A stretch of 64,000 bases of DNA, taken from an uncultured Acidimicrobiales bacterium (lineage in GTDB: Bacteria; Actinomycetota; Acidimicrobiia; Acidimicrobiales; DATKAS01). Where the stretch lies: positions 413,938 through 477,937 of the forward strand of contig CAWDJB010000003.1 of assembly GCA_963802505.1 (NCBI GenBank), in the 5' to 3' direction. The translations under genes were made by a program, and so were the position numbers. The notes beneath the pieces were generated by a model, which was given only the letters and a program-made list of their open reading frames with translations, was not told where the DNA came from and searched no databases. Positions 1,362 through 43,858 of the stretch are shown one piece after another (the stretch's first letter is position 1; every line of letters begins with the position of its first letter).

Positions 1362-2732
1362 ATGTCATTGACCCTCGACGGCGTCGGCAAGCTGGTCTCG
1401 CTCGAGCGGGGCGAGGTCGATCGGCGGATCTTCAGCGACCCTGACATCTTCGAGCAGGAGCTCGAGCTGATCTTCGGGCGCGCGTGGCAGTTCATGTGCC
1501 ACGAGACGCAGGTCCCGAAGGCGGGTGACTTCTTCGAGGCGCCGATCGGGCGCGACAACGTGCTCGTCGTCCGCCAGAAGGACGGCAGCCTGAAGGGTCT
1601 CCTCAACACCTGCGCCCATCGTGGCAACGCGGTCTGCCGCGCGGAGGAGGGCAACACCAAGGCCTTCATGTGCACCTATCACGGGTGGACCTACGGACTC
1701 GACGGCAGCCTCATCGGCGTCCCAGGGATGTCGGAGCTGTACCACGACGAGCTCGACCGGTCTCAGCACGGGCTCGGCGAGGTCGCGCAGCTCGACACGT
1801 ACAAGGGCTTCGTGTTCGCAACGATGGACCCATCCGCGCCGTCGCTCTTCGACTACCTCGGGACGACCTCGCGGCTCGCGATCGACCTCATGGTGCTGCG
1901 CGGCGACCTCGAGGTCGTGCCCGGCATCCAGAAGTTCGTGATCCCGTGCAACTGGAAGTTCGCAGTCGACAACCTCTTCGATTGGTACCACCCGCAGATC
2001 ACCCACATGTCTGCGAATGGGCTCATCGGCATCATGCCGGCGGAGGAGGGCACCTTCATCGACACGGGTGGCGCGACGACGCCGGACGGCAAGGACATCG
2101 ACAGCGCCGCGGGGCAACGCACGCTCGCGATGGGCTCGATGGTGGTGCTCGGTGAGTACGGCCACGCGATCGGCGGTCCGAACCGTCGAGGGATCGAGCA
2201 GATGCTCGTCGGTCCGATGGCCGCGGTGTTCTCGCAGGACTTCAGAGACACCCCCGAGGCCATCGAGGTGCTCGGCCCCGTCGGCCGCGAGGTCGCGGGA
2301 CACCCGAACATCTTCCCGAATTCGTGGATCACCAACTTGCAGCTGTCGTTGCGCGTGCCGCGCAGCCCGAACGAGACGGAGATCTGGTGGTTCACGTTCG
2401 TGCCGCGGGACATGCCGGCCGAGCATCAGGCGATGGTGATCGGCATGGCGAACCACGTGTTCGGCCCGGCCGGGTTCCTCGAACAGGAGGACGGCGAGAA
2501 CTGGGCGCAGAGCACGATGCAGACCGCCGGCTATCGCAGCAAGCAGATGCCGCACGCGCTCAGGATGAACCTCGGGAACGGCAAGGTGCTGAAGGAGCAC
2601 GGCCTCGCCCACATCGACGGGAACACCACCGAGCACGCACAGCTGTGGACGTACGCATCGTGGGAGCAATGGATGTCGGGTTGTAGCTGGGACGAGCTGC
2701 GGGCGCGCACGACGCCGCCCGACGTGATGTGA
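1362..2732 (+). CDS. Rieske non-heme-iron ring-hydroxylating oxygenase, alpha subunit (alpha-1, type A)
   Basis: Start moved from track ORF 1122 to ATG 1362, with GGAGG at 1351-1355. Rieske motif CAH-x17-CTYH and mononuclear-iron motif NWKFAVDNLFDWYHPQITH are present. A beta subunit follows 10 nt downstream. Confidence 0.9.
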   Translation: MSLTLDGVGKLVSLERGEVDRRIFSDPDIFEQELELIFGRAWQFMCHETQVPKAGDFFEAPIGRDNVLVVRQKDGSLKGLLNTCAHRGNAVCRAEEGNTKAFMCTYHGWTYGLDGSLIGVPGMSELYHDELDRSQHGLGEVAQLDTYKGFVFATMDPSAPSLFDYLGTTSRLAIDLMVLRGDLEVVPGIQKFVIPCNWKFAVDNLFDWYHPQITHMSANGLIGIMPAEEGTFIDTGGATTPDGKDIDSAAGQRTLAMGSMVVLGEYGHAIGGPNRRGIEQMLVGPMAAVFSQDFRDTPEAIEVLGPVGREVAGHPNIFPNSWITNLQLSLRVPRSPNETEIWWFTFVPRDMPAEHQAMVIGMANHVFGPAGFLEQEDGENWAQSTMQTAGYRSKQMPHALRMNLGNGKVLKEHGLAHIDGNTTEHAQLWTYASWEQWMSGCSWDELRARTTPPDVM

Positions 2733-2742
2733 GGGAGGCGAC

Positions 2743-3285
2743 ATGGCCATCGACGAGATGAAGATGACCGAGGACGTGCAGGATCAGATGCAGGTCCACT
2801 TCGAGGTCGAGCGCTTCTACTTCCAGGAGGCCAACCTCCTCGACGACCGTCTGTTCGAGGAGTGGGTCGCGCTGTTCAGCGACGACGCGCACTACTTCAT
2901 GCCCATCCGCCGCACTCGGTCGAAGCGCGAGCTCGACAAGGAGTTCACGCAGCCCGGTCAGATGGCGTTCTTCGACGACACGAAGATGCTGCTCGAAGCG
3001 CGCGTGAAGAAGATCCTGTCGGGCACCGCGTGGGCGGAGGATCCGCCGTCGCGAACCCGCCACGTCATCACGAACATCATCGTGACCGAGGATCGTGGCG
3101 ACGAGCTCGACGCCCGTTCCAACTTCATCCTGTACCGCACGCGGCTCAAGTCCGAGGAGCTCACGTGGATCGGCTCGCGACGCGACGTGCTGCGCCGCAA
3201 CGGCTCGTCGTTCCTGATCGCGAAGCGTCACATCTTCCTGGAGCAGACGCTTCTGCTCTCGCAGAACCTCAGCAACTTCTTCTGA
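2743..3285 (+). CDS. Ring-hydroxylating oxygenase beta subunit (beta-1, type A, NTF2-like fold)
   Basis: 180 aa. Family hallmarks seen: [38 protein letters not shown] and the C-terminal LSNFF. Immediately follows alpha-1. Confidence 0.85.
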   Translation: MAIDEMKMTEDVQDQMQVHFEVERFYFQEANLLDDRLFEEWVALFSDDAHYFMPIRRTRSKRELDKEFTQPGQMAFFDDTKMLLEARVKKILSGTAWAEDPPSRTRHVITNIIVTEDRGDELDARSNFILYRTRLKSEELTWIGSRRDVLRRNGSSFLIAKRHIFLEQTLLLSQNLSNFF

Positions 3286-4233
3286 TCAGCCGTTCAGGAA
3301 GTCGATGATCACCTGGGAGTACTCGTCGGGCTTCTCCCACTGGGGCCAGTGGCCGGCGTCGGCGAACTCGTAGAACTTGGCGCCGATGATGTCGGCGCAG
3401 TACTCGCCGTACTCAGGACCCTGACCGGGGTTGTGGTCGCCCCACAGCACGAGCGCCTCAGGCTTCCAGCTGTTGCGGACGTCGTCCTCGGGCCGGGCGT
3501 TCGCGAGCATCGACATGAAGTCGGGCGGAGGCTGACCGACGCCGAAGACCTGGCGCATCGCCCGATTGATCTCGGGCTCCTGATACAGCCGCTGGCGAAG
3601 CAGCACCATCTCGGGCGTGATGCGATCGGGCACCTTGACGAGCCAGTGGAGCCGCTTCGCGACGTTCTCGTAGCTCGGGTCGGTCACGGCGGCGACGGAG
3701 AGCGGGAAGAGGTCTTGCATCGGCGGCCCGGGTGACGGCGCGAAGTCCATCATCGGACGATCCGTCTTCACCATGCCGAAGCCGTTGAGGATGATCTTCC
3801 CGGCGCGCTCCGGGTACTTCAGACCGAACTCGGTGCCGATCATGGCGCCCATCGACTCGCCCTCGAAGTGCGCCCACTCGTACCCGAGCGCCTCGATGAG
3901 ATCGACGACCCCGTCGACCTGGTTCACGGCCATCTCGGCGCGGTCCTTCATGTCGGGCTTCGAGCTGAACCCGTGGTAGAGCGCGTCGACCGCGTACACG
4001 TGGTAGCCCGCGGCCGCGATCGCCGGGAGCGTCCGGGCGTAGGTCTCCGCGTGGCCCCCGATCCCGTGGTACATGAGCAGCGGGGGGCCGTCGCCCTTGT
4101 GGATCACGTGGTGGTTCCACCGCTCGCCTTTGACGACCACGGACTCGGCGCCGAGGAACTCGACGGCGATCGGCGCCCAATCCTCGAGCGGTCGCTCGTT
4201 GATCGGCTTCGACAGCTTCAGCTTCTGGGCCAT
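3286..4233 (-). CDS. Alpha/beta-fold hydrolase, meta-cleavage-product (C-C bond) hydrolase-like (H1a)
   Basis: HGIGGHAETY oxyanion region, GESMGA nucleophile elbow and C-terminal AGHWPQWE catalytic-His region. Met14 of the track ORF (4233) is chosen as the start. Paralogue of 42911-43858. Confidence 0.75.
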   Translation of the reverse strand: MAQKLKLSKPINERPLEDWAPIAVEFLGAESVVVKGERWNHHVIHKGDGPPLLMYHGIGGHAETYARTLPAIAAAGYHVYAVDALYHGFSSKPDMKDRAEMAVNQVDGVVDLIEALGYEWAHFEGESMGAMIGTEFGLKYPERAGKIILNGFGMVKTDRPMMDFAPSPGPPMQDLFPLSVAAVTDPSYENVAKRLHWLVKVPDRITPEMVLLRQRLYQEPEINRAMRQVFGVGQPPPDFMSMLANARPEDDVRNSWKPEALVLWGDHNPGQGPEYGEYCADIIGAKFYEFADAGHWPQWEKPDEYSQVIIDFLNG

Positions 4234-4310
4234 GACTCGAGTTGACAACGCGGCCGCATGCGGGGCCACCACGCTGTTCCGCGCGGCAGCACACGAGTGG
4301 CGCGGCGTGT

Positions 4311-4958
4311 TCAGAGGAGGGCGTCGATCATCGCGTCGACGATGAACCGACTGAACCGGGCGGGAGTCCAGCCGCGACGAAGGACAAGGAGCTCGTACAG
4401 CTCGGGTGCGCTGTAGGTCCAGAGCACATCAGCCGCGCGCGCGACGGTGATCCCAGCACGGAGGTGACCGGCGCGTCCGAGCCGGCGAGCGTTGTCCGTC
4501 ATGCGGCGCAGCCGGTCTTCGTCCATCTCCTCGAGCAGTGTCGCGACCTCAGGGTCACTTGCTGCAGCGGCCCGGATGAGCAGGAGGATCGGAGCGACGC
4601 GGGGGGCGACCTCCAGAGTCAGGGCACCCCACGCCTCGATGATCGTTCGACCATCGAGCTCGCGCGCCTGGAGCTCGTCGGATCTCTGCTCGGCAGGCAC
4701 CGGTCCTTCGCCTTCGAGCGCCCGTGCGCGGATGGCCCTGACTAGGCCGGGCTTGCCGCCGAAGGTCTTGTACACGGTGTCGGCAGAGACCGCCGCGTCG
4801 TCGGCGATGGCGGCGATCGTCGTCGGGCCGTACCCATCGCGGAGGAATCGCCGTTCGGCCCCGTCGATGATCCTCTCGCGGGTCTGGCGCGCCTGCTCCC
4901 GACGGCGAGCGGAGTCATACGGCCGCTTCTGCTTGACGGCGCCGCGGTGTTCGCCCAT
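4311..4958 (-). CDS. TetR-family transcriptional regulator
   Basis: 215 aa. N-terminal HTH region RERIIDGAERRFLRDGYGPTTIAAIADDAAVSADTVYKTFGGK. Divergent from the SnoaL/NmrA pair. Confidence 0.8.
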   Translation of the reverse strand: MGEHRGAVKQKRPYDSARRREQARQTRERIIDGAERRFLRDGYGPTTIAAIADDAAVSADTVYKTFGGKPGLVRAIRARALEGEGPVPAEQRSDELQARELDGRTIIEAWGALTLEVAPRVAPILLLIRAAAASDPEVATLLEEMDEDRLRRMTDNARRLGRAGHLRAGITVARAADVLWTYSAPELYELLVLRRGWTPARFSRFIVDAMIDALL

Positions 4959-5023
4959 AGTGTGATATTGATTCTAGTGAACTGGAATGAACTGTCCAGC
5001 ACCGTCGAGCATCGGAGACCGCA
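4959..5023. promoter_or_regulatory. Divergent promoter/operator region between the TetR gene and the SnoaL-like gene
   Basis: Locally A+T-rich (ATAGTGTGATATTGATTCTAGTGAACTGGAATGAACTG). Direct repeat TGAACTG at 4978-4984 and 4988-4994. Short inverted repeat CTGGA-N8-TCCAG. Confidence 0.4.
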
Positions 5024-5431
5024 ATGGATGGACCACAGGCGATGGTCGAGCGGCTTCTGCGAGCGACGAACGGCCACGACGTCGAGGGCGTGGTCGCGTG
5101 CTTCGCCGAGGACTACGAGAACGAGACGCCGCTGCATCCAGCGCGGGGCTTTCGCGGCCGCGAGCAGGTCCGCCGAAACTGGACGCAGATCTTCGCCTTC
5201 GTGCCTGACCTCAACGCGCGACTGGTGCGATCGACGTGCGACGCCGACACCGCGTGGACCGAGTGGGAGATGACCGGTACGCGCCGCGATGGCACTCCCC
5301 ACTTGATGCGCGGCGTCATCGTGTTCGGCGTGGACGACGGCGTCGCGCGCTGGGCCCGCTTCTATCTCGAACCCGTCGTCGACGACGCCGACACGGTCGA
5401 CGACGCGGTGCGACAGCAGGTCGTCCGATGA
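5024..5431 (+). CDS. SnoaL/NTF2-like small protein
   Basis: 135 aa. The general pattern (VACFAEDYENE..., WTEWEMTGT...) is typical of NTF2-like/SnoaL polyketide-cyclase-like proteins. Stop overlaps the next start (ATGA). Confidence 0.55.
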   Translation: MDGPQAMVERLLRATNGHDVEGVVACFAEDYENETPLHPARGFRGREQVRRNWTQIFAFVPDLNARLVRSTCDADTAWTEWEMTGTRRDGTPHLMRGVIVFGVDDGVARWARFYLEPVVDDADTVDDAVRQQVVR

Positions 5432-6291
5432 TCCTCGTCGCTGGCGGAAGCGGTCGTCTCGGCACGCTCGTCGTGAAGCGGCTCGCCGCCCGCGGTCTCG
5501 ACGTACGCGTCCTGACTCGCGATCCGAGCCGAACGCGCCACCTCGGCGACGCCGCGATCGACATCGTCGAGGGAGACGTGCGCAACCGTGCGAGCCTCGA
5601 ACGAGCGGTGGAAGGGGTCAGCGTCGTCGTGTCTGCGGTCCACGGGTTCGCGGGCCCTGGCCGAGTCACTCCTGCGTCAGTCGATCGTGACGGCAACGCG
5701 AACCTCGTAGACGCGGCGGCCCGTACCGGAGCCGACGTCGTGCTGCTGTCAGTCGTCGGCGCGGCCGAGGACCATCCGATGGAGCTGTTTCGCGCCAAGC
5801 ACGACGCAGAGGTGCATCTGCGGGCGAGCTCGGTGCAGTGGACCATCGTGCGCGCGACAGCCTTCGTCGAGCTCTGGGCCGACATCATGCGAAAGCCGAT
5901 CGTGTTCGGACGGGGCACGAACCCCATCAACTTCGTGTCGGTCCACGACGTGGCCGGCGCGGTCGTGCAAGCCGTCGTCGATCCGAGTCTTCGCGGCCAG
6001 GTCCTCGAGATCGGCGGCCCGCAGAACATGACGTTCAACGAGCTCGCCGCGCTCCTCGCGGAGGTGCGGGGACGACCGGCCCGTGTCCGTCACGTGCCGC
6101 GCAGCCTGCTCCGGGCCGTGGCGCCGTTCAGCCGACAGGCGAGCGCGGCGGTCGCGATGGACACGATCGACATGACCTTCGATGCAGTCTCCGCCCGAGG
6201 CCGCTTCGTCGACCTGCCGATGACCGACATGCGAAGCGCACTCGAAATCGCGAGCGGCGTGCCAAGACCAGGCGTGCAGCCCGCCCAGTAG
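5428..6291 (+). CDS. NmrA-like / atypical SDR NAD(P)-binding protein
   Basis: True start ATG 5428 gives MILVAGGSGRLGTLVVKRLAARGLDVRVLTRD (Rossmann GxxGxxG). The upstream part of track ORF 5236 is Arg-rich and non-coding-like. Confidence 0.7.
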   Translation: MILVAGGSGRLGTLVVKRLAARGLDVRVLTRDPSRTRHLGDAAIDIVEGDVRNRASLERAVEGVSVVVSAVHGFAGPGRVTPASVDRDGNANLVDAAARTGADVVLLSVVGAAEDHPMELFRAKHDAEVHLRASSVQWTIVRATAFVELWADIMRKPIVFGRGTNPINFVSVHDVAGAVVQAVVDPSLRGQVLEIGGPQNMTFNELAALLAEVRGRPARVRHVPRSLLRAVAPFSRQASAAVAMDTIDMTFDAVSARGRFVDLPMTDMRSALEIASGVPRPGVQPAQ

Positions 6292-7551: not shown

Positions 7552-8109
7552 ATGGCCACGAGCTTCGGCCCCTCGGCACTCGCCACTCCCGCGAACGGCG
7601 TGACCGTCGCTCGTCTGCTCGCCGCGCCCTTCCTGATCGTGATGATCGATGGCAAGGAAGGATCGTGGGCAGCGTTCGTGCTTTGGTTCGCGCTCTGCGC
7701 CACCGACGGAATCGACGGGTTTCTCGCTCGCCGTCATGGCACGACTCGGTCGGGCGCGTTCCTCGATCCGCTCGCGGACAAGGTGCTCGTCATCGGCGCC
7801 ATGTTCGCCTTGGTGAAGCAGGGCGTGTTCTGGTGGCTGCCGGTTGCGCTCATCGCCGCACGTGAGATCGCGATCAGCATGTACCGCAGCATGGCCGGCC
7901 GTCAGGGGATCACGATCCCGGCCCGGCAGGGCGCGAAGGTCAAGACCGTGTGCCAGCAGTTCGCGGTCGGCTTCGCGTTGCTGCCATGGTCGGCCGATGC
8001 GCCGTGGCTGTTCAACGGGTTCCTCTGGGTGGCTGTGGTCCTGACCCTCTTCACCGGCGCGCAGTACCTGCTGGACGCGCGCCGAGTCGCTCGCACACAG
8101 CGCGCGTGA
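7552..8109 (+). CDS. pgsA: CDP-diacylglycerol--glycerol-3-phosphate 3-phosphatidyltransferase
   Basis: 185 aa. CDP-alcohol phosphatidyltransferase motif DGIDGFLARRHGTTRSGAFLDPLADK. Confidence 0.85.
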   Translation: MATSFGPSALATPANGVTVARLLAAPFLIVMIDGKEGSWAAFVLWFALCATDGIDGFLARRHGTTRSGAFLDPLADKVLVIGAMFALVKQGVFWWLPVALIAAREIAISMYRSMAGRQGITIPARQGAKVKTVCQQFAVGFALLPWSADAPWLFNGFLWVAVVLTLFTGAQYLLDARRVARTQRA

Positions 8110-9359
8110 GCCTCCGCTGCGAGGTCGTCGCGGTCGGCACCGAGCTCCTGCTCGGGCAGGTCGTCGACACCAACTCATCGTGGATCGGCGAGCAGCTCGC
8201 CCTCTCGGGGATCGACTCGCACTTCCAGACGAAGGTCGGTGACAACCGCGCTCGAATCGTGGCGGTGCTGCGCCTTGCTCTCGATCGCAGCGACGCGGTG
8301 ATCGTGTGCGGCGGCCTCGGTCCGACGCACGATGACATCACCCGCGAGTGCATCGCCGAGGTCATGGGAGTCGAGCTCGAGCGCCACGACGACATCGCCG
8401 AGCGCATCACCCAGATGTTCTCGAGCCGAGGCAGGCGCATGGCCGAGAACAACCTGCGCCAAGCCGACGTCCCCGCTGGGGCGACGGTCATCCCGCAGGT
8501 CCGGGGCACGGCTCCCGGGCTGGTATGCCCGGTGGGCGACAAGGTCATCTACGCGGTGCCGGGAGTGCCGCACGAGATGAAGGAGATGGTGACGCGGGCG
8601 ATCCTGCCCGACCTGCGTGAACGCTCGGGCGAGACGGCGGTCATCGTGAGTCGCACGCTCCGCACGTGGGGAGAGAGCGAGTCGGGCCTCGCCGAGATCT
8701 TGGCCCCGCTGATCGATCGCCTCGACGAGACCGGCAACCCGACCCTCGCGTTCCTCGCGAGCGGCATCGAAGGCTTGAAGGTGCGGCTCACCGCGAAGGC
8801 CGAGTCACACGACGCGGCGGCGAAGGTGCTCGCCGCCGAAGAGGAGTCCGTGCGAGCCATTCTCGGCTCACTCGTGTTCGGCATCGACGACGAGACGATG
8901 GAGAGCGCGGTGCTCGAGATCCTCCGCGGCCAAGGTCGTTCGCTCGCCCTCGCCGAATCGGTGACGGGCGGCCTCGTTGCCGCGCGACTCACCTCAGTGC
9001 CGGGCGCATCTGACGTGTTCAAGGGTTCGGTCGTGTCGTACGCGACCGAGGTGAAGCAGGACATCCTCGGTGTTCCCGAGGGTCCGGTCGTCAGCGAAGC
9101 CGCGGCAATCGCGATGGCCGAGGGCGCCTGCCGCGTGATGGACGCCGACGTCGGCCTCGCGCTCACCGGTGTCGCGGGCCCCTCGGAGCAGGACGGCCAA
9201 CCGGTCGGCACGCTGTTCGTCGGGTTGTGCATCGACGGCGCCTGCGAGGCGGCGCACCTTCGGCTTCCGGGCGATCGCGACCAGATGCGGCAGTTCGCAG
9301 TGATCTCCTCGCTCAACATGATGCGACTGCGACTGCTCGAGCGGAACGGCGCCGGCTGA
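8106..9359 (+). CDS. cinA: CinA-family protein (MoCF-binding domain plus PncC-like nicotinamide-nucleotide amidase domain)
   Basis: GTG 8106 overlaps the pgsA stop (GTGA). N-terminus VAVGTELLLGQVVDTNS. C-terminal domain has AESVTGGL. Confidence 0.85.
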   Translation: MSLRCEVVAVGTELLLGQVVDTNSSWIGEQLALSGIDSHFQTKVGDNRARIVAVLRLALDRSDAVIVCGGLGPTHDDITRECIAEVMGVELERHDDIAERITQMFSSRGRRMAENNLRQADVPAGATVIPQVRGTAPGLVCPVGDKVIYAVPGVPHEMKEMVTRAILPDLRERSGETAVIVSRTLRTWGESESGLAEILAPLIDRLDETGNPTLAFLASGIEGLKVRLTAKAESHDAAAKVLAAEEESVRAILGSLVFGIDDETMESAVLEILRGQGRSLALAESVTGGLVAARLTSVPGASDVFKGSVVSYATEVKQDILGVPEGPVVSEAAAIAMAEGACRVMDADVGLALTGVAGPSEQDGQPVGTLFVGLCIDGACEAAHLRLPGDRDQMRQFAVISSLNMMRLRLLERNGAG

Positions 9360-9853
9360 GCGAGCGTCTTTTCATCGCCGCCTGGCTCCCGGACGATGTG
9401 CTCGACGCCATCGCCGCGCTGCCACGGCCGTCGATGTCACACGTGCGGTGGACGACTCGTGATCAGTGGCACGTCACGCTGCGCTTTCTGGGTGACGCTG
9501 CCGCAGACGAGGTGATCGCAGCGCTCAGCCGAGTCACGGCGCCCCCGACTGACGCGGTGCTCGCGACCCGCACCCAGCGCCTGGGTCGCGGGGTGCTTTG
9601 CGTCCACGTCTCAGGGCTCGACGATCTCGCCGCGGCCGTGCTCGCCGCGACAGCGAGCCTCGGCCGCCCGCCCGAACACCGCGCCTTTCGGGGTCACGTC
9701 ACCCTGGCGCGGGTCGATGGCCGGACGAAGCCCCCGCTCACCGACGTGCCGGCGCTCTCTTGGCCGGTTGCTACGTTCGCCCTCGTGCGCAGTCATCTGG
9801 GAGGCGGCCCCGCCCGCTACGAGACGGTGGCCACATGGCCGCTCCAGCCATGA
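9356..9853 (+). CDS. thpR: RNA 2',3'-cyclic phosphodiesterase (2H phosphoesterase, ThpR/LigT-like); start uncertain
   Basis: Two HxT motifs (HVTLRFLG and HVTLARV). No ATG/GTG lies near the homologous N-terminus (LFIAAWLP). CTG 9356 overlapping the cinA stop is a guess. Confidence 0.65.
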   Translation: MSERLFIAAWLPDDVLDAIAALPRPSMSHVRWTTRDQWHVTLRFLGDAAADEVIAALSRVTAPPTDAVLATRTQRLGRGVLCVHVSGLDDLAAAVLAATASLGRPPEHRAFRGHVTLARVDGRTKPPLTDVPALSWPVATFALVRSHLGGGPARYETVATWPLQP

Positions 9854-10341
9854 GCGATCCCCACGCCGACGTCGTCGCGGCCCTCGACGCGCGTGGCGTC
9901 GACTACGAGGTGATGGACTGCGACCCTGACTTCGCCGACACCGCCGCGTTCTGCGAGAAGTACGGCATCTCGCCCGACGAGTCGGCCAACACGATCCTCG
10001 TCGTCGGCAAGTCAGAGCCGCGGCGCTATGTCGCCTGCGTCGTGCTCGCCACCACGCGACTCGACGTGAACGGCATCGTGCGGCAGCGCCTCGGCGTGAA
10101 GAAGGCGTCGTTCGCCTCCGCCGACGAGACCCGCGACATGACCGGCATGTTGATCGGCGGCGTCACGCCGATCGCGCTGCCTGACGGCGTTCCGATCTGG
10201 GTCGACGCCGCGGTGATGACGCCCGCGTCGATCGTGCTCGGCGGCGGCGACCGGTCGACGAAGCTGCGGATGACGCCGGCCGCGCTCGTGTCTCTGCCGA
10301 ACGTCGAGGTCGTCGACGACCTGGCCAAGTCCGTCACCTGA
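9850..10341 (+). CDS. YbaK/EbsC-like aminoacyl-tRNA editing domain protein
   Basis: ATG 9850 overlaps the thpR stop (ATGA). 163 aa with ...MLIGGVTPIALP... typical of YbaK-type deacylases. By-eye call. Confidence 0.6.
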   Translation: MSDPHADVVAALDARGVDYEVMDCDPDFADTAAFCEKYGISPDESANTILVVGKSEPRRYVACVVLATTRLDVNGIVRQRLGVKKASFASADETRDMTGMLIGGVTPIALPDGVPIWVDAAVMTPASIVLGGGDRSTKLRMTPAALVSLPNVEVVDDLAKSVT

Positions 10342-31720: not shown

Positions 31721-31738
31721 GCCGAGACAGGAGCCGAC

Positions 31739-36066: not shown

Positions 36067-36095
36067 CGGAAACGGAACCTTGTCTTCCATTTCCG
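36067..36095. promoter_or_regulatory. Imperfect inverted repeat CGGAAACGGAA-N7-TTCCATTTCCG in the A+T-richer spacer upstream of the IclR gene
   Basis: 10 of 11 positions are complementary. GGAA/TTCC occurs six times within 36061-36130. Confidence 0.35.
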
Positions 36096-36144: not shown

Positions 36145-37017
36145 ATGTCAGCCAGGGGGGAAGGCATGGCAGTCGCTCAGCGGTCTCGTCGTAGCCCGAC
36201 GGCCACCGATCCGGCAGTCGTCGATGAGGTGCTCGACGACGGCGCCGAAGACGTCGAGGCCGGTCCATCAGGCGACCTCGACACCTCGGTCGGCAAGGCG
36301 CTCGCCTTGCTCGAGGCGTTCCGCACCAGCTGCCGGCCGATGGGTGTCACCGAGCTCGCTCGGCTGGCGCACCTACCCAAGTCGACTGCGTACCGGTTGC
36401 TCGCGATCCTGCGCCAGTGGAACCTCGTCGAGCGATCCGGCTCTGACTATTGCCTGGGCAAGCACCTGTTCGAGCTCGGCAACCTCGTGCCCTACTGCCA
36501 GCCTCGAGGGCTCCGCGACGTCGCGCTGCCGTACCTGATGCGCCTGTACGAGGCCAGCCACGAGACAGTGCACCTTGCGGTGCTCGATGGCACCGACGTG
36601 CTCTACATCGAGAAGATCTACGGCCACAACCCGTGCAAGGCGCCGACCTACGTCGGTAGCCGCATGCCGGTCGAGTGCGCGGCGCTCGGCAAGGCGATGC
36701 TCGCGTTCTCCGACAAGGAAGCAGTGCTGCGAGTGCTCTCGCGTGGGCTGCAGCGCGTGTCGCCCTACACGATCGTCCAGCCTCAGCACTTCGTCGATCA
36801 GCTCGGCACCATCCGCCAGGAAGGCGTCGCCTTCGATCGGGAGGAGTCGACGATCGGGCTCACCTGCGTCGCAGCCCCCGTGCTCGGCCCCGGAGGCAAG
36901 GCGATCGCGGCCGTGTCGCTCGCGGGCCCGACCTACCGTTTCAAGCCTGATGAGTTTGCGGGGCGGGTCCGTGAAGCAGCGGTGGGGATCGCGCAGGACT
37001 TCCAGGCCGTCAATTGA
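36145..37017 (+). CDS. IclR-family transcriptional regulator
   Basis: SVGKALALLEAFRTSCRPMGVTELARLAHLPKSTAYRLLAIL (wHTH) plus a C-terminal IclR effector domain (HLAVLDGTDVLYIEKI...). ATG 36166 is an alternative start. Confidence 0.8.
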   Translation: MSARGEGMAVAQRSRRSPTATDPAVVDEVLDDGAEDVEAGPSGDLDTSVGKALALLEAFRTSCRPMGVTELARLAHLPKSTAYRLLAILRQWNLVERSGSDYCLGKHLFELGNLVPYCQPRGLRDVALPYLMRLYEASHETVHLAVLDGTDVLYIEKIYGHNPCKAPTYVGSRMPVECAALGKAMLAFSDKEAVLRVLSRGLQRVSPYTIVQPQHFVDQLGTIRQEGVAFDREESTIGLTCVAAPVLGPGGKAIAAVSLAGPTYRFKPDEFAGRVREAAVGIAQDFQAVN

Positions 37018-37607
37018 ACCCGGCAGCAACACCGCTCCGCTCTGACGCGCGCCGCAACCGTGACCGTATCCTCGTCGCGGCAGCCGAGGTGTTCGCCGAG
37101 TGCGGCGTCGACGCGCAGATGACGGACATCGCGGCTCGCGCGGAGGTCGGCATCGGCACGCTGTATCGCCACTACTCGACCAAGGAAGAGCTCATCTACT
37201 CGGTCGTCAACGCCTGGTTCGAAGACCTCCTGGTCGCGACCGAAGAGGCGGCGACGATCGCCGACCCCGCCGTGTCGTTTCGCACGTTCTTCGAGCAGAT
37301 GTGCGTCCGCGTGGCGAGCGCAGCGACGCTTGCTCGCGCGCTCCACACGCCGTTCACGACGATGCCGCGGCCGGTGCCCGCAGAACGCCGTGTCGTCGAG
37401 ATCATGTGTGAGCTCGTCGATCGCGCGCAGGTCGCGGGAACGCTGCGGCGCGACATCGTCGCCGAGGACCTGCCGCCACTGCTCGCGACGATCGCGGAGG
37501 CGTCACACGACGACTTCTACGCGCATCGCAACTGGAAGCGCTACATGGAGCTCATCCTCGACGGGCTCTGCACACCGGTACCGAGCCGGCTCGCGCCCCG
37601 CAGCTAG
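37014..37607 (+). CDS. TetR-family transcriptional regulator (TTG start overlapping the IclR stop)
   Basis: RRNRDRILVAAAEVFAECGVDAQMTDIAARAEVGIGTLYRHYSTKEEL HTH. The only start upstream of helix 1 is TTG 37014, which overlaps TGA 37015-37017. Confidence 0.75.
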   Translation: MNPAATPLRSDARRNRDRILVAAAEVFAECGVDAQMTDIAARAEVGIGTLYRHYSTKEELIYSVVNAWFEDLLVATEEAATIADPAVSFRTFFEQMCVRVASAATLARALHTPFTTMPRPVPAERRVVEIMCELVDRAQVAGTLRRDIVAEDLPPLLATIAEASHDDFYAHRNWKRYMELILDGLCTPVPSRLAPRS

Positions 37608-37625: not shown

Positions 37626-38456
37626 TCAGCTCGATTCCGCGGCCATCGACGCCATCATCGCCTGCATCGCCGACTTCAGGGCGATGCCGATCCCGCCGTC
37701 GCAGTTGTGGACCGTGCCCGTCGCAGTGCGCGCATCGCGACGGTTGGCGAGCAACACGAAGTGGCCGACGTAGTCGTTTGCCTCAGGCATGAAGCCGAGC
37801 GGCATGAACGACTTCGCCATCTCTGGATCCATGACATCGCCGATCTTCATGTCGCCCATGCCGAGTGACGGCACGCCGCGGAGGTCGGTGATCATCCCGC
37901 CCGGGGCGACGCCGTTCACGCGGATGTCGGGAGCGAGATCCCACGCGAGCTGCTTGACCATGCCCATCACTGCGTGCTTCGAGGTCGTGTAGAGCACGCC
38001 CCCGCCCCCCGGGTAGAAGCCGGCGTTGGACACCGTGAAGATCATCGAGCCTTTCGACGCCTTCAGCGCAGGAACGGCAGCGCGCGCCGCCAAGACGTAG
38101 CCCTTCACGTTCACGCCGAACAGCTCGTCGAAGGCCGACGCGAGGTTCTCGAGCGGCACGTCGGCGATGTTGACGTTGAAGTCCCAGATGCCGGCGTTGC
38201 CGACGAGGCAGTCGAGCTTGCCGAAGGCCGCCACGGTGTCGTCGACCGCTCGCTGGTTGTCGTCGGCGACGGTGACGTCGCCCACGGTCACGCTGACCTT
38301 GTCGCCGAGCGCGGAGTCGAGGTCGGCAGCCTTGTCCTTCGACTTCTCGAGCACGCCGACTCGCGCGCCTTCCTCGATGAACCGCTCGACCACGGCACGG
38401 CCCAGGCCGCTTCCCCCACCGGTGACCAGCGCGACCTCTCCATCCAGCTGACCCAT
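37626..38456 (-). CDS. bphB: cis-2,3-dihydro-2,3-diol dehydrogenase (classical SDR), BphB-like
   Basis: Start ATG 38456 with GGAGGGGG 6 nt upstream. [49 protein letters not shown]. By-eye colinear with BphB sequences I recall. Confidence 0.85.
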
Positions 38457-39556
38457 GACGTCCCCCTCCGTTGACCGAACCTCGAGCGCGACGCGCTGAC
38501 AGCGTGCCCGTTGGCGATCTCGACGGCGACGTCGATGATCTGATCTTCCTGGCCGCCGACCAACTTGCGCTCGGCGCATCGCAACAGGATCTCGGCGCCG
38601 GACACGTCGTAGCGCTCGGCCGCGCGGTAGGCGTGCTTGAGGAAGCTCGAGTACACGCCCGCGTAGCCCATGATGAGCGCGAGCCGATCGAGCAGGCACT
38701 CGCCGTCCATCACCGGACGCACGATGTCCTCGGCGACGTCGATCAGCGCGAGCACGTCGACGCCGGTCTCGATGCCGAGCCGATCGCACACAGCCGCGAG
38801 CGCCTCGCACGGAGTGTTTCCCGCCCCTGCGCCGAAACGTCGTGTCGAACCGTCGATCTGCACCGCGCCGGCACGGTGCGCGACCAGGCTGTTCGCGACC
38901 CCGAGCGCGAGGTTCTCGTGGCCGTGGAAGCCGACCTGGGCGTCGTCGCCAAGCTCTGCGACGAGAGCAGCGACGCGCTCGCCGACCTGGTCGAGGATCA
39001 GCGCGCCCGCGGAGTCGACGACGTAGACGCACTGGCAGCCGGCGTCGGCCATGATCCGAGATTGCACCGCCAGCGAGTCCGGGTCGCTGGTGTGCGCCAT
39101 CATCAGGAAGCCGACGGTCTCGAGGCCCAGCTCGCGGGCGAGGCCGAAGTGCTGGATGGAGATGTCGGCTTCGGTGCAGTGGGTCGCGACACGCACGATC
39201 GACACGCCCGCGTCGGCGATGTACTTGATGTCGTCCTTGGTGCCGACGCCCGGAAGCATCAGCGCGGCGATCTTGGCGGTGTCGGCGACCTTCACCGCGG
39301 TCGCCATGAGCTCGCGCTCGTCGGTGAGCGAGAAGCCGTAGTTGTAGGAGGACCCGCCGAGGCCATCGCCGTGCGTCACTTCGATCACCGGCACGCCCGC
39401 GGCATCGAGCCCCGAGACGATGTCGCGGACATGGTCGGTGGTGAAGCGGTGGCGCTTCGCGTGGGACCCGTCGCGGAGGCTCGTGTCGGTCAGCCGGAAG
39501 TCGAGCGTGTCCGAGTACTGCCGCGCTCCGTACTTCGCGGTCGAGGGTGCATCCAT
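38288..39556 (-). CDS. 4-hydroxy-2-oxovalerate aldolase (DmpG/MhpE/BphI/HsaF family) with an unexpected 61-codon 3' extension
   Basis: [58 protein letters not shown]. The frame does not stop until 38288, overlapping the bphB-like gene by 169 nt. Confidence 0.85.
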
Positions 39557-40347
39557 CAGGGGGTCTCCTCCGGGCTGATGATCGCTCGGACGGAACCGAG
39601 CCCTTCGATGGTCACTTCGGAGCGCTGACCGGCGGCGATCGGCGCCATGCGGCCGAGAGCGCCGCTCATGATCACGTCGCCCGCGCGCATCGGTGTGCCG
39701 CGCGTGGCCATCGTCCGTGCGAGCCAGAGCGCCGCGTTCAGCGGGTGCCCGAGGCACGCCTCGCCAACGCCTTCGGAAACCACGTCACCGTCAACGGTGA
39801 GCTGCATCTTGCAGGACCGGAGGTCGACATCGGGCAGGCGCACGGGTCGGTTGCCGAGCACGAACGCACCTGAGCTCGCGTTGTCGGCGATCGTGTCGAC
39901 GATGCTGATCTGCCATCCGCTGATGCGCGACGCGACGACTTCGATCGCGGGCACGACGAAGTCCACCGCGGACATCAGCTCGACGATCGTCGTGTCCGGA
40001 TGGGGGAGGTCGCGAGCGAGCACGATCGCAACCTCGCCCTCGACGCGAGGTTGCGGCACCTTCCGAGCGGGGATCGGCTCGGCGTCGCCGTAGCAAGTGT
40101 CGGCGAACAGCGCGCCGAAGTCGGGCTCGTACACACCGAACTGCTCTTGCACCGCGAGTGACGTCAGGCCGATCTTGCGGCCGATCAGCCGACGGCCGAG
40201 CGAGAGCGATCGAGCGGTGTTGATCAGCTGGACCTCGTACGCAGCTTCGACGTCGCCCTCTTTGAGGTCGCCGAGCAGCGGGTCGATCGTCACCGCGTTC
40301 TGCTCGGCCTCCCAAAGGCGGTCTGCCAGCGCTTGTGCCGTCGTCAT
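39556..40347 (-). CDS. 2-oxopent-4-enoate (2-keto-4-pentenoate) hydratase (MhpD/BphH/HsaE family)
   Basis: 263 aa. [34 protein letters not shown], and a FAH-fold C-terminus. TGATG overlap with the aldolase start. Confidence 0.85.
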
Positions 40348-41240
40348 CGGGCCCCTTCCAGCAGGTGCCGCGCGATCACCTCGCCCACCTTCGTCGCGGC
40401 GGCGGTCATGATGTCGAGGTTCCCAGAGTACGAGGGGAGGAAGTCACCCGCCCCCTCGACCTCGAGGAAGATCGCCACGCGGCCGAGGTCACCGAACACA
40501 CCGGGCGGATCGAACTGCGGCTCCGAGCGCAGGCGATAGCCCGGCACGTACTGCTGCACCTCGGAGACCATGTCGACGATCGAAGCGCCGATCTTCTCCT
40601 CGTCGACGTCGGTGGGCAGCGAGCAGAAGATCGTGTCTCGCATGATCAGCGGCGGCTCGGCGGGGTTGAGGATGATGATCGCCTTGCCCCGCTGCGCGCC
40701 ACCGATCGCCTCGACCGCCGACGCCGTCGTGCTCGTGAACTCGTCGATGTTCGCTCGCGTGCCGGGGCCCGCCGACTTCGATGCGACCGTCGCGACGATC
40801 TCCGCGTAGGCGACAGGGACACAGCGCGAGACCGCGTAGACCATCGGGATCGTCGCCTGGCCGCCGCAGGTCACCATGTTCACGTTTGGTTCCGAGATGT
40901 GCTCGGACAGATTCACCGGCGGGATCACGTAGGGGCCGCGGGCTGCGGGCGTGAGGTCGATCGCCCGGATGCCGGCCTCTCGGTAGCGAGGCGCATTGCG
41001 CACGTGGACGTACGCAGAGGTCGCTTCGAACACCATGTCGGGCTTCTCGGGCCGGGCGAGCAGCCAGTCGAGTCCCTCATGTGATGCCTCGACTCCCGCC
41101 GCGCGCGCCCGAGCCAGCCCTTCGGACTCGGGCTCCACGCCGACCATCGCCACTGGCTCGATCCAGTCCGAGCGCAGGAGCTTGTAGAGCAGGTCGGTGC
41201 CGATGTTGCCCGATCCGACGATCGCCGCGGTCGCCTTCAC
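40344..41240 (-). CDS. Acetaldehyde dehydrogenase (acylating) (DmpF/MhpF/BphJ/HsaG family)
   Basis: GTG 41240 gives [24 protein letters not shown]. An internal [11 protein letters not shown] motif is present. 4-nt overlap with the hydratase start. Confidence 0.85.
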
Positions 41241-41341: not shown

Positions 41342-41887
41342 ATGGCCGTGGAGGCGTCGAAGACCCGCGTCCGGGTAGATCCCGAGACGTACTACGACAT
41401 CGAGCAGTTCCTTCTCGACGAGGCGGACCTCCTCGATGAGCGCCGATTCGAGGAGTGGATCGAGCTCATGGCCGACGACGTCCACTACTGGATGCCGACG
41501 AGAGCGAACCGCCTGGCGCGTGAGCTCGACCGAGAGATCTCGGCTCCGGACGAAGCCGCGTTCTTCGACGAGACCAAGGAACATCTGCAGCAGCGTCTGT
41601 TCCGCTTGCAGACGGGCATGGCGTGGGCTGAGGATCCGCCGTCTCGCACACGGCATCTCGTGACGAACCTCCGCGTCTACCCGACTGACGACCCCAACGA
41701 GTACGACGTCGAGACGTCGTTCTTGCTCTATCGCACCCGGCTCGAGCGCGAGATGGACCTCTTCGTGGGCAAGCGGTTCGACCGCTTGCGTCGCGCCGAC
41801 AACCCCTACGGTTGGCAGATCGCGAAGCGCAAGATCATCCTCGACCAATCGACGCTGCTGGCGAAGAACCTCAGCTCGTTCTTCTGA
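41342..41887 (+). CDS. Ring-hydroxylating oxygenase beta subunit (beta-5, type B), not adjacent to any alpha subunit
   Basis: Start ATG 41342. [42 protein letters not shown]-terminal LSSFF. Confidence 0.85.
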
Positions 41888-41893: not shown

Positions 41894-42907
41894 GTGCAGT
41901 ACCAGACGCTGGGGCCCTCGGGTCTCTATGTCTCGCGCATCTGCATCGGGAGCGCGACGTTCGGCGCCGGCCCCCTGGCCGACGAGGCCGAGCGGATCGT
42001 GCACCGCGCACTCGACCTCGGGATCAACTTCTTCGACACGGCGAACTCCTACGGCAACCAGCCGAGGTTCGACCGTCCGGGCGCACCTCCGGCGGCCGAG
42101 CGGGCGAGCGCCGAGGAGATCATGGGGAAGGCCCTGCGGGGCGTCCGCGACGAGATCGTCCTGGCCAGCAAGCTCTCGGAGGCGATCGGCCCCGGCCCGA
42201 ACGACGGACGCGTCCCGGGACCCAAAGCGGTGAACCCGGGTGGCGGCCTGTCGCGCTACCACATGCTCCGCGAGGTCGACCGCAGCCTGCAGCGGCTCGG
42301 CACCGACCACCTCGACATCCTCTACGCGCATCATCCCGACCCGACGACGCCGCTCGAGCAGACGATGCAGGCGTTCGACGACCTCGTGCGGGCGGGGAAG
42401 ATCCGCTATGGCGCGCTCTCGACGTTTCCCGCGTGGCAGATGGTCGAGGCGCTGTGGGTGTGCGACCGGCTCGGGCTGGGGGCGCCGATCTGCAATCAGG
42501 TGATGTACAGCATGCTGAGTCGGGAAGTGGAGCGCGAGATCGTGCCCGCGTGCCTTCGCACCGGGATGACGCTCACGGCGTTCAGCCCCCTCGCTGGCGG
42601 GTTGCTCGCGGGCTCCGCGGTGCTCGAGCGGTCGGTGAGCGGATGGCAGCGCTTCGGGTCGGCGCGCACGTACCCGCCCGAGCAGATCGAGACGGCGCGT
42701 CGGGTCGAGACGCTCGGCGCGGAATGGGGGATCGAGGCGGCACAGCTGGCGTTGGCGTGGCTGCTGTCGCGGCCCATGCTCACGAGCGCGGTCGTCGGAC
42801 CCGAAGTCGTGGCGGAGGTGGACGCGAACGTCGGCGCGGTCGACGTGCAGCTCGACGCCGTGCAGCTCGCGCAGCTCGACGAGGTGTTGGGGCCGGTCAG
42901 CCCTTGA
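41894..42907 (+). CDS. Aldo/keto reductase (AKR-3, paralogue of AKR-2)
   Basis: 337 aa. GINFFDTANSYG, GGLSRYHMLREVDRSLQRLGTDHLDILYAHHPD, FSPLAGGLLAG. Confidence 0.85.
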   Translation: MQYQTLGPSGLYVSRICIGSATFGAGPLADEAERIVHRALDLGINFFDTANSYGNQPRFDRPGAPPAAERASAEEIMGKALRGVRDEIVLASKLSEAIGPGPNDGRVPGPKAVNPGGGLSRYHMLREVDRSLQRLGTDHLDILYAHHPDPTTPLEQTMQAFDDLVRAGKIRYGALSTFPAWQMVEALWVCDRLGLGAPICNQVMYSMLSREVEREIVPACLRTGMTLTAFSPLAGGLLAGSAVLERSVSGWQRFGSARTYPPEQIETARRVETLGAEWGIEAAQLALAWLLSRPMLTSAVVGPEVVAEVDANVGAVDVQLDAVQLAQLDEVLGPVSP

Positions 42908-42910
42908 CGC

Positions 42911-43858
42911 TCAACCCTTGATGAACTCGATGAGCACCTGGTCGTGCTCCTCGGGCTTCTCCCACTGCGGCCAGTGCGCCGCGTCGAGCATGTTGTAGAA
43001 GCTCGCGCCGGGGATGAGGCTCGCGCAGTACTCGCCGTAGTCAGGTGCCTGGCCGGGGTTGTGTTCGGTCCAGAACACGAGGGACTCGGGCTTGAAGGTC
43101 GCCACGTCGTCCTCGGTGAAGCGCAGCTTGCGAGTCCACGGCCGACCGATGCGATACACCTTCTGCATCGACTCGTAGATCTCCAGGAACGAGTACAGGC
43201 GCAGCCGGATCTCGACCATCTCGTCGGTCATGCGCTCCGGGCTCGCGACGAGCCACTCCATGCGCTTGCGAACGTTCTCGAACGTGGGGCTGACGACCGA
43301 CTGCTGCGACAGCTCCTGGAGCGTCGAGCCGCCGCCCGGGTTCTCCTTGAAGTCCTTCTTCTTCAGGTCGACCGGGCCGAACCCGGTGTTCATGATCAGC
43401 TTCCCCGCGAGCTCGGGATGACGCATGCCGAACTCGAACGTGATCGCGCCCCCCATCGACTCGCCCTCGATGTGGGCGTAGTCGTGGCCGAGCGCTTGGA
43501 TGAGGTCGGCGAGGGCGTCGGCCTGCAGCTCGGTCCAGTGCTCCTCGTCCCAGCCGTCCTTCTGGCTGAAGCCGTGGAACAGGGCGTCGATCGCGTAGAC
43601 GTGGAATCCGTGGTTCGCGAGGTTGTGGAGGCTGCGGGCGTACGTCTCGGCATGACCGCCGATGCCGTGGATCAGGATCAGGGGCTCGCCGGTGCTGTCG
43701 CCCGCCTCGATGACACGGTGGTACGAGTGCTTCCCTTGCACGATGCGGGTCTGCGTGCCCAGCAGCTCGACAGCGACGGATTGCCACTCGTCGAGCGGCT
43801 TCGCCTTGGGCGTGTTGTTCAGCGTCAGCACCTTGGTCATGACACGACTCTGCGCCAC
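42911..43858 (-). CDS. Alpha/beta-fold hydrolase, meta-cleavage-product hydrolase-like (H1b, paralogue of H1a)
   Basis: IHGIGGHAETYARSL, GESMGG, AAHWPQWEKPEEH. Met7 (43840) is an alternative start. Confidence 0.75.
   Translation of the reverse strand: MAQSRVMTKVLTLNNTPKAKPLDEWQSVAVELLGTQTRIVQGKHSYHRVIEAGDSTGEPLILIHGIGGHAETYARSLHNLANHGFHVYAIDALFHGFSQKDGWDEEHWTELQADALADLIQALGHDYAHIEGESMGGAITFEFGMRHPELAGKLIMNTGFGPVDLKKKDFKENPGGGSTLQELSQQSVVSPTFENVRKRMEWLVASPERMTDEMVEIRLRLYSFLEIYESMQKVYRIGRPWTRKLRFTEDDVATFKPESLVFWTEHNPGQAPDYGEYCASLIPGASFYNMLDAAHWPQWEKPEEHDQVLIEFIKG

Follow-up and report, generated by a model that had tools for sequence, protein, structure and literature searches.

Gene clusters that funnel several upper-pathway modules into one lower pathway are well known from sphingomonads (e.g. 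Sphingobium sp. PNB), Rhodococcus RHA1 and the polycyclic aromatic hydrocarbon clusters of Mycobacterium. Two other kinds of described system are close to the locus analyzed here: the hca/mhp 3-phenylpropionate pathway (E. coli-type) together with the bph pathway (BphA1 of Rhodococcus jostii RHA1; PDB 1uli), and the Bfz system. The source study of the latter is that of Chen et al. (2017), as cited in PMC10718449, from which the role of BfzB is taken second-hand. There, bfzBA3A4A1A2C is cited as the buprofezin/biphenyl upper-pathway cluster of Rhodococcus qingshengii YL-1; BfzA3A4A1A2 is presented as the dioxygenase, BfzB as the dehydrogenase of the next step after dihydroxylation, and a BLAST search with BfzB is stated to retrieve an aldo/keto reductase (AKR). 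The locus compared with these systems is contained in a 64,000-nucleotide stretch of DNA of an uncultured Acidimicrobiales bacterium (contig CAWDJB010000003.1), referred to below as the window. It is a conserved 35-45 kb cluster for the degradation of aromatic compounds in an uncultured soil bacterium of the order Acidimicrobiales. Two kinds of system that were already known, the Bfz type and the Hca/Bph type, are combined in it; the lineage is new, the system is not. This cluster probably funnels several upper-pathway modules, with two kinds of three-component Rieske dioxygenase, into one lower pathway.

Genes were called by third-position GC content (GC3; the G+C content of the window is 65-70%), each supported open reading frame (ORF) was annotated with Pfam, and families were assigned by Pfam, NCBIfam and PDB searches. 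The homologous loci with which the window was compared are designated L001, L173, etc. The inventory claimed in an earlier note on this DNA was recovered in full and in place: six Rieske oxygenase alpha subunits, five beta subunits, one Rieske ferredoxin, four meta-cleavage product (MCP)-type hydrolases, one extradiol dioxygenase, one short-chain dehydrogenase/reductase (SDR), one lower pathway and three AKRs. Seven Rieske alpha-type genes within 43 kb is far above chance, and the array was found again in independent assemblies. The oxygenase components are as follows.

1362-2732, + strand: alphaA1, Bfz-type Rieske oxygenase alpha subunit of 456 amino acids (aa) (Pfam Rieske and Ring_hydroxyl_A; 59% identity to BfzA1)
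2743-3285, + strand: beta1, partner of alphaA1 (Ring_hydroxyl_B, 151 bits; 63% to BfzA2)
11663-12208 and 12236-13600, - strand: beta2 and alphaA2, second Bfz-type pair (Pfam; alphaA2 59% to BfzA1, beta2 63% to BfzA2)
20544-21899, + strand: alphaB1, Hca/Bph-type alpha subunit (Pfam; PDB 1uli, 458 bits, and 8k0a, 446 bits; 49% to BphA1 of RHA1 and to HcaE)
22931-24262, 24289-25296 and 25306-25890, + strand: alphaB2, hydrolase h2 and beta3 (Pfam)
30364-31720 and 31739-32278, + strand: alphaA3 and beta4, third Bfz-type pair (split Pfam matches; repaired alphaA3 63% to BfzA1)
34391-34702, + strand: Rieske-type ferredoxin, HcaC/BfzA3-like, the sole one in the window (NF007422, 127 vs. a cut-off of 113; 58% to the ferredoxin of plasmid pYLC1, see below)
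34723-36048, + strand: alphaB3, Hca/Bph-type alpha subunit (HcaE model, 555 bits vs. a cut-off of 830; 52-53% to HcaE and BphA1)
41342-41887, + strand: beta5 (Pfam; 59% to beta3)

The division of the alpha subunits into types A and B, proposed in the same note, is real, with identities of 60-64% within type A and 54-74% within type B, but 38-40% between the types. The beta subunits group to match (63-65% identity among beta1, beta2 and beta4; 59% between beta3 and beta5), and all five gave Ring_hydroxyl_B matches of 142-157 bits. The Rieske motif CxH-x17-CxxH, the iron motif DxxHxxxxH and the downstream Asp are intact in all six alpha subunits (in alphaA3 after a one-base repair). Checked by profile placement against PDB and NCBIfam, both types fell within the toluene/biphenyl/Hca group. 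The type B subunits share 46-53% identity with HcaE and BphA1 and score 446-458 bits against HcaE (8k0a) and BphA1 of RHA1 (1uli); the type A subunits reach 254-295 bits in PDB searches. The cut-off of the HcaE equivalog model (NF042946; 830 bits) was missed by the type B subunits (498-555 bits) and by alphaA1 and alphaA2 (323-325 bits).

Each of the three type A alpha genes adjoins its own type A beta gene (alphaA1/beta1, alphaA2/beta2 and alphaA3/beta4). In the case of type B, alphaB1 is a paralogue of alphaB2 (74% identical) that lacks a separate beta gene, beta3 presumably serving as the partner of both; alphaB3 pairs with beta5, and their orthologues adjoin in L013, L016 and L020. The Hca/Bph-type part of the cluster resembles the hca/mhp and bph systems in the identity of its alpha subunits, in a ferredoxin that passes the HcaC cut-off, in an SDR that passes the cut-off of an HcaB-type model, and in its MhpD-, DmpG- and DmpF-like lower-pathway genes; the canonical set of alpha, ferredoxin, beta, hydrolase and SDR occurs in approximately 59 actinobacterial loci. 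It differs from them in that the type B subunits stay below the HcaE equivalog cut-off, the extradiol dioxygenase is of type I (BphC-like), an HcaD-type reductase is absent, and alphaB3 and beta5 are split by 5 kb of regulators and lower-pathway genes. MhpB of E. coli is an extradiol dioxygenase of another type.

Four genes of the window are candidates for the dehydrogenation step that follows dihydroxylation (the ratio of nonsynonymous to synonymous substitution rates is given as dN/dS).

21901-22863, + strand: AKR1 (Aldo_ket_red, 250 bits; 60% to the second AKR of pYLC1; dN/dS 0.08)
28426-29447, + strand: AKR2, BfzB-like (halves of the Aldo_ket_red match in different frames, 147 and 53 bits; 51% to the AKR at the bfzB position of pYLC1)
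41894-42907, + strand: AKR3, BfzB-like (Pfam; 50.5% to the AKR at the bfzB position of pYLC1)
37626-38456, - strand: SDR, putative cis-dihydrodiol dehydrogenase of the HcaB/BphB type (NF004849, 389.7 vs. 330 bits; HcaB model 375, BphB_TodD 349)

Plasmid pYLC1 of Rhodococcus sp. YL-1 (NZ_CP017300.1) was matched by both AKR queries, AKR1 and AKR3, in a search of a plasmid collection. Its annotated gene order is IclR, AKR, HcaC-like ferredoxin, TetR, FAD reductase, Rieske alpha, beta, VOC and second AKR, in which the succession of AKR, ferredoxin, reductase, alpha, beta and VOC is the same as that published for bfzB-A3-A4-A1-A2-C. The window components homologous to BfzA1, BfzA2, BfzA3, BfzB and BfzC share 59-63%, 63%, 58%, 50% and 45% identity, respectively, with the pYLC1 genes, and in both systems the oxygenase is accompanied by an AKR, not an SDR. 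The window does not, however, hold these components as a single operon with a BfzA4 reductase: they are spread over 40 kb without a BfzA4-type reductase, there are three alpha/beta copies as opposed to one, and the gene order is different, with genes for Hca/Bph-type oxygenases, for hydrolases and transporters and for E1 alpha/beta lying in between. Moreover, the cluster is chromosomal and belongs to the class Acidimicrobiia. A megablast search of 25 kb against plasmids returned short, weak matches only, which indicates that this DNA is not a known plasmid.

Two details of pYLC1 itself were recorded. The second AKR (L170, 24114-25775; pYLC1, 249113-250774) is annotated as a protein of 553 aa, of which only the first 284 residues match AKR1, and a gap of 1.35 kb with no listed gene separates it from bfzC.

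The earlier note had remarked that AKRs are not standard members of bph/nah/tod-type clusters and that they might provide an alternative redox step for dihydrodiols. The first remark is true, yet AKRs do belong to the Bfz-type cluster; the second gains support from the homology (approx. 50% identity) of AKR2 and AKR3 to the AKR at the bfzB position. Judging from these sequence relationships, the AKRs are probable extra dihydrodiol dehydrogenases, and together with the SDR they would make up to four candidate diol dehydrogenases, as opposed to one. AKR1 and AKR3 match PF00248 with 215-250 bits, and the catalytic tetrad Asp-Tyr-Lys-His is kept at the aligned positions in all three proteins. AKR2 and AKR3 are 50% identical, and AKR1 belongs to a different AKR clade (33% to AKR3). 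The AKR1 start lies 2 nucleotides (nt) from the alphaB1 stop and the AKR3 start 7 nt from the beta5 stop.

The distribution of these genes was analyzed in an alpha-centred set of 79 loci taken from genomes in GTDB. In most of the actinobacterial relatives the operon is the canonical one (alpha, ferredoxin, beta, hydrolase, SDR) and an AKR is missing: 59 loci have only an SDR, 8 only an AKR, 1 both and 11 neither (Fisher's exact p = 2e-5; the nine AKR loci represent about four lineages). Those nine comprise the Acidimicrobiales loci, Pseudonocardia acidicola L006 and Streptomyces L009-L011, and eight of them lack a local SDR. The operon of Streptomyces L011 is composed of the genes for an extradiol dioxygenase, an h2-type hydrolase, alpha, beta, a reductase and an AKR, a module that recurs across L009-L011. 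When AKR3 homologues of 55-60% identity were sampled regardless of context, ring-hydroxylating oxygenase genes adjoined four out of eight, and two of these four loci (L083 and L166) are minimal alpha-beta-AKR operons; among generic AKR loci (35-51% identity) such a linkage was found in 0 out of 40. This background came from a metagenome scan with AKR3, which yielded hardly anything but generic AKRs (35-40% identity). An AKR3 homologue (56%) was also observed in Burkholderia cenocepacia (L085; CP007783.1, 2175510-2190493), in an array of LysR, AKR, an orphan Ring_hydroxyl_B gene, a BphC-like dioxygenase and a hydrolase. This array adjoins a LigXa-type Rieske oxygenase gene, so that the association of AKRs with Rieske oxygenases reaches the proteobacteria. 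The little-known Bfz-type arrangement, i.e. a Rieske dioxygenase with an AKR-family dehydrogenase, is therefore widespread (Pseudonocardia, Streptomyces, metagenomic contigs and, in part, Burkholderia), which provides a testable rule for the annotation of AKRs beside Rieske oxygenases. Literature searches on AKRs in Rieske oxygenase clusters returned nothing directly relevant.

It is also conceivable that the AKRs act as carbonyl reductases, either on ketones or aldehydes in the side chains of the substrates or on catechol-derived o-quinones, with all re-aromatisation left to the SDR. The closest solved relatives of the AKRs are indeed carbonyl reductases (MtmW, DepB, aryl-alcohol-dehydrogenase-like enzymes and YghZ), a genuine SDR gene of the HcaB type is present approximately 3 kb from AKR3, four of the eight AKR3 homologues lack the oxygenase link and, according to PMC10718449, no AKR had yet been shown to dehydrogenate. 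We nevertheless regard this role as unlikely, since the gene at the bfzB position of a functional bfz operon encodes an AKR with 50% identity to AKR2 and AKR3, the compact operons of L083 and L166 (alpha-beta-AKR) and L011 (extradiol dioxygenase-hydrolase-alpha-beta-reductase-AKR) do without an SDR, and the presence of AKRs and SDRs is anticorrelated over the 79 loci. In the preferred reading, both the HcaB-type SDR and, as the analogy with BfzB suggests, the AKRs would re-aromatise cis-dihydrodiols.

The electrons for all of the oxygenases may be delivered by the single HcaC/BfzA3-like ferredoxin together with a reductase whose gene would lie in another part of the genome. That no ferredoxin reductase is visible locally, as first noted from the sequence, was borne out over the whole 64 kb: none is present among the Pfam-annotated, GC3-supported genes, and a tblastn search with a GR-type reductase from a related Streptomyces locus gave a best E value of 0.75. 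A reductase gene was found at none of the 8 Acidimicrobiia loci, as opposed to 60 of the 79 related alpha-centred loci in total; the lack of a local reductase is a trait of this lineage.

The genes assigned to the later steps, in addition to h2, are the following.

3286-4272, - strand: h1, divergent MCP-type alpha/beta hydrolase (full-length PDB matches to BphD, HsaD, CumD and MhpC, 62-83 bits; 50% to h4)
25922-26800, + strand: type I extradiol dioxygenase, BphC/HsaC-like, the sole one in the window (BphC_D1 and Glyoxalase; TIGR03213, 290 vs. a cut-off of 366; 45% to BfzC)
29509-30348, + strand: h3, canonical MCP hydrolase (BphD TIGR03343, 239 bits; HsaD, 232 bits; GNSMGG and H-W motifs)
38288-39556 as read (stop lost), - strand: DmpG-type aldolase (HMGL-like and DmpG_comm)
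39556-40347, - strand: 2-keto-4-pentenoate hydratase (FAA_hydrolase; NF008461, 330 bits vs. a cut-off of 350)
40344-41240, - strand: acetaldehyde dehydrogenase, DmpF-type (AcetDehyd-dimer)
42911-43858, - strand: h4, divergent MCP-type hydrolase, paralogue of h1 (Pfam; HsaD, 91 bits; BphD, 69 bits)

The best full-length matches of all four hydrolases (PDB and/or NCBIfam) are MCP hydrolases; for h2 these are CarC, CumD and BphD in PDB (62-70 bits). The nucleophile Ser, the His and the equivalent of Arg190 are invariant in h1-h4. The full set of signature motifs is found in h3, GNSMGC and H-Q in place of H-W in h2, and GESMG in h1 and h4, and all four proteins stay under the curated MCP cut-offs (69-239 vs. 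400-462 bits). Each hydrolase gene sits in its own oxygenase module, and a homologue of h4 (72% identical) adjoins an alpha-AKR-beta-ferredoxin array in P. acidicola L006. MhpD/DmpE-, DmpG- and DmpF-type domains occur together in one operon, as in a lower meta-cleavage pathway. In the proposed route, catechols would be opened by the single BphC-type extradiol dioxygenase, the ring-fission products cut by the four module-specific MCP-type hydrolases, and 2-hydroxypentadienoate processed by the single set of hydratase, aldolase and acetaldehyde dehydrogenase.

As far as the substrates are concerned, biphenyl-, phenylpropanoid- or flavonoid-like compounds are the likely ones. A Hsa-like cluster directed at steroids or bile acids instead of mono- or bi-aryl compounds might be suspected, given that HsaD is the best NCBIfam match of h1, h2 and h4 and that the extradiol dioxygenase scores 252 bits against HsaC. 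These HsaD and HsaC scores fall, however, well short of the cut-offs (400-450), those of the same proteins against BphD and BphC are just as high or higher, all of the alpha subunits lie within the Hca/Bph/Bfz group, and KshA-, KstD- or HsaAB-type genes are missing from the Pfam annotation of the window. We rejected this alternative as highly improbable.

The single extradiol dioxygenase, ferredoxin and lower pathway fit a funnel architecture. The multi-oxygenase clusters of sphingomonads, RHA1 and Mycobacterium are comparable in that many alpha/beta pairs go with few or single ferredoxin and reductase genes and one lower pathway, and in their several isofunctional hydrolases. The locus departs from them in its lineage (uncultured Acidimicrobiales), in the mixture of Bfz- and Hca/Bph-type oxygenases, in its AKR-type dehydrogenases, and in the embedded E1 alpha/beta genes and catalytically dead alpha-like Rieske protein.

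Several observations weigh against the funnel interpretation: (i) the electron chain is incomplete within the window, which lacks a reductase, (ii) no alpha subunit reaches the equivalog cut-off (323-555 vs. 830 bits) and substrates are therefore not assignable to the individual oxygenases, (iii) the role of BfzB rests on a genetics study known second-hand, and the authors of PMC10718449 are themselves sceptical about AKRs acting as dehydrogenases, (iv) half of the sampled AKR3 homologues (4/8) lie in unrelated contexts, (v) h1, h2 and h4 resemble MCP hydrolases only from afar (69-91 bits), h3 alone being near BphD/HsaD (239 bits), and (vi) the E1 alpha/beta genes have no place in the proposed route. 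The numerical imbalance between oxygenases and downstream functions that had been claimed for this region proved overstated once the pairings and the AKRs were counted; one extradiol dioxygenase still stands against six oxygenases, although others may lie elsewhere in the genome. We still consider the funnel reading the probable one. It places a large, conserved capacity for aromatic degradation in uncultured soil Acidimicrobiales, for which a literature search found little, and only marginal, information on aromatic catabolism, and it does not overturn the current understanding.

Among the features that the earlier note did not list are frameshifts, the chromosomal setting and several of the remaining genes (E1 alpha/beta, the Liv-type importer, the MFS transporter, the nitroreductase, the regulators and the HNH gene). 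The remaining genes of the cluster are given below.

4311-4958, - strand: TetR-type gene of the alphaA1 module (Pfam)
5024-5431, + strand: SnoaL-like gene of the alphaA1 module (Pfam)
5428-6291, + strand: NmrA-like NAD(P)-binding protein gene of the alphaA1 module (Pfam)
10346-11575, - strand: HNH-domain gene, 409 aa, at the left edge of the cluster
13680-14366, - strand: nitroreductase-family flavoprotein, first gene of the alphaA2-beta2 operon (Pfam Nitroreductase; dN/dS 0.13)
14399-15403, + strand: R334, alpha-like Rieske protein of 334 aa without the catalytic iron site (Pfam Rieske domain only)
15410-20575, + strand: Liv-type ATP-binding cassette (ABC) importer with two ATPases, a Peripla_BP_6 binding protein and a fused permease (Pfam)
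26823-28363, + strand: major facilitator superfamily (MFS) transporter (Pfam MFS_1 halves in different frames)
approx. 32320-33327, + strand: E1 alpha, 2-oxoacid-dehydrogenase-type (E1_dh; best PDB match Thermus 2-oxo acid dehydrogenase 1um9, 217 bits)
33333-34313, + strand: E1 beta (Transket_pyr and Transketolase_C; NF006667, 337 vs. 321)
36145-37017 and 37014-37607, + strand: IclR and TetR regulators (Pfam)

An exact-protein look-up with beta4 retrieved two assemblies that are approximately 97% identical to the window, L001 (a 1.41 Mb ENA contig) and L002 (an NCBI metagenome contig), whereas an exact look-up of RecA gave no record. The nearest genomes are the uncultured Acidimicrobiales metagenome-assembled genomes (MAGs) L003, L004 and L005, whose alphaB2 is 90-92% identical and whose isolate names carry the prefix MFD, presumably that of the Microflora Danica survey. 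At least four related MAGs keep the gene order. The order common to L001 and L003-L005 is alphaA2(-), nitroreductase(-), R334, ABC importer, alphaB1, AKR1, alphaB2, h2, beta3, extradiol dioxygenase, AKR2, h3, alphaA3, beta4, E1 alpha, E1 beta, ferredoxin and alphaB3; the MFS gene, missing from L003-L005, is the sole variable gene of this order. In a MAG that is further removed (L012/L014) the cluster is rearranged and includes the right-hand block alphaB3, IclR, TetR, SDR, DmpG, hydratase, DmpF, beta5, h4 and ABC-2 transporter. The alphaA2-beta2 pair is kept in L003-L005 and L173, with a nitroreductase that is 80-83% identical. For AKR1, alphaB2, the binding protein and the nitroreductase, dN/dS values of 0.06-0.15 point to purifying selection.

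The cluster is flanked by actinobacterial core genes, on the left RimO, (PgsA), CinA, LigT and YbaK (with CinA, the LigT-like 2'-5' RNA ligase and YbaK-like genes at 7950-10341) and on the right RecA (45871-46929), SpoVS, MiaB, MiaA, DapF and HflX, followed by LexA and NrdR. The cinA-ligT-recA locus is normally contiguous, and a catabolic block of 35 kb appears to have been inserted into it. The left junction in the sister MAG L173 is identical apart from the absence of the HNH gene. Further to the left, the alphaA1 module (1362-6291) is absent from L173 (2114-4482, compared with 198-6291 of the window), where a CoA-transferase gene directly adjoins RimO; the insertion comprising alphaA1, beta1, h1, TetR, SnoaL and NmrA is thus variable between species. 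On the right flank, a SpoVS-family gene (47056-47454) lies between recA and miaB, a position at which recX is expected in actinobacteria.

Since the window contains many paralogues and scattered indel errors and comes from a long-read metagenome, the array might in principle have arisen during assembly, through the collapse or concatenation of paralogous oxygenase operons that belong to several genomes. The same order was nevertheless found in independent assemblies from different samples (L001, 1.41 Mb; L002; L003/L173, 545 kb; L004; L005, 1.17 Mb), in which the core-genome flanks match too, and an artefact of this kind was rejected as extremely improbable.

The alphaA3, AKR2 and MFS genes are each broken by one base, as revealed by GC3 frame switches and split Pfam matches. 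In alphaA3 an extra G at 31263, present in neither L001 nor L002, puts the ORF 30364-31767 out of frame past residue 300, the true end being at 31720; L002 carries an intact alphaA3 of 451 aa. AKR2 has a deletion at 29127 (G5 in the window vs. G6 in both L001 and L002) and the MFS gene one at 27583 (C4 vs. C5 in L001; the site lies outside L002). In the case of DmpG, an extra base at 38484 relative to L001 abolishes the stop codon, so that the ORF extends as far as 38288, with approximately 170 nt of overlap with the SDR gene; this is why the lower pathway had been read as starting at 38288. L001 has other indels (28903, 31351, 32530 and 32715). One-base repairs yield full-length proteins of 451 aa (alphaA3), 340 aa (AKR2) and 513 aa (MFS).

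Four single-base indels within 26.8-38.5 kb, together with R334, which lacks the catalytic iron ligands, could mark a decaying cluster, i.e. a pseudogenising remnant. The indels are not shared with the 97% identical L001, which has different ones, both alphaA3 and the C-terminus of AKR2 are intact in L002, two of the window indels lie in G or C homopolymers, and related nanopore-era MAGs show genes split at random places. Their absence from the 97% identical assemblies and the randomly split genes of the related MAGs indicate that the frameshifts are most likely long-read indel errors and not pseudogenes. In addition, one-base repairs restore full-length proteins, dN/dS is well below 1 (0.06-0.15 for the neighbours, 0.23-0.32 for R334), and the length of R334 is kept over approximately 20 clusters down to 52% identity. 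Decay was therefore rejected as very improbable.

R334 had been described as a degenerate alpha subunit. It is indeed alpha-like and has lost the catalytic iron site, but it belongs to a small conserved family in which the Rieske cluster is kept: the CxH and CxxH ligands are invariant, and the DxxHxxxxH and Asp regions are deleted. Without the mononuclear iron site, R334 does not count as an oxygenase. Its family comprises approximately 20 homologous clusters (323-348 aa, 52-96% identity), the next matches being full-length alpha subunits at 40% identity or less, and we flag it as a small family of alpha-like Rieske proteins lacking the iron site. The dN/dS values of 0.23-0.32 are relaxed relative to the neighbours and clearly below 1; R334 is under purifying selection. 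Its gene stands first in the importer/oxygenase array and is in every case oriented divergently to the nitroreductase gene. An AlphaFold2 model based on a 17-sequence alignment had a mean pLDDT (predicted local distance difference test) of 52.6, too poor for a fold search. Electrons might pass from NAD(P)H through the nitroreductase, as the FMN protein, and R334 to the oxygenases, a route that would take the place of the absent reductase in these Acidimicrobiales, or, failing that, R334 might be a catalytically dead subunit that joins active alpha subunits; we hold this proposal to be quite doubtful. A distant homologue of the nitroreductase (36%) was also observed on an unrelated metagenomic contig (L166, 2404-3075), approximately 1.2 kb from the alpha-beta-AKR operon.

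The Liv-type importer is kept in L003-L005 and L014, and less similar versions of it stand beside alphaB3-like genes in L016 and L020; together with the MFS transporter it may supply the substrate. The E1 alpha and beta genes, closest to the Thermus branched-chain E1, lie between beta4 and the ferredoxin gene with no E2 or E3 gene nearby, and they are conserved in L002-L005 and L012 only, all of this Acidimicrobiales lineage. The HNH gene is not found at the same site in L173, and L005 has an 81% identical copy, located between the genes for beta4 and E1 alpha; such behaviour is like that of a mobile selfish gene. The IclR and TetR proteins presumably regulate the cluster. Scans of the window for promoters and terminators gave counts at or under shuffle expectation. 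An inverted repeat (36067-36095) with 11-bp arms and one G-T pair (CGGAAATGGAA...TTCCGTTTCCG) is located between the alphaB3 stop and the IclR start and could be the terminator of a long operon or an operator. Further downstream, at 55359-58634, the window encodes a 1091-aa protein in which an adenylate/guanylate cyclase domain occurs together with an AAA_16 NTPase domain of the STAND type.

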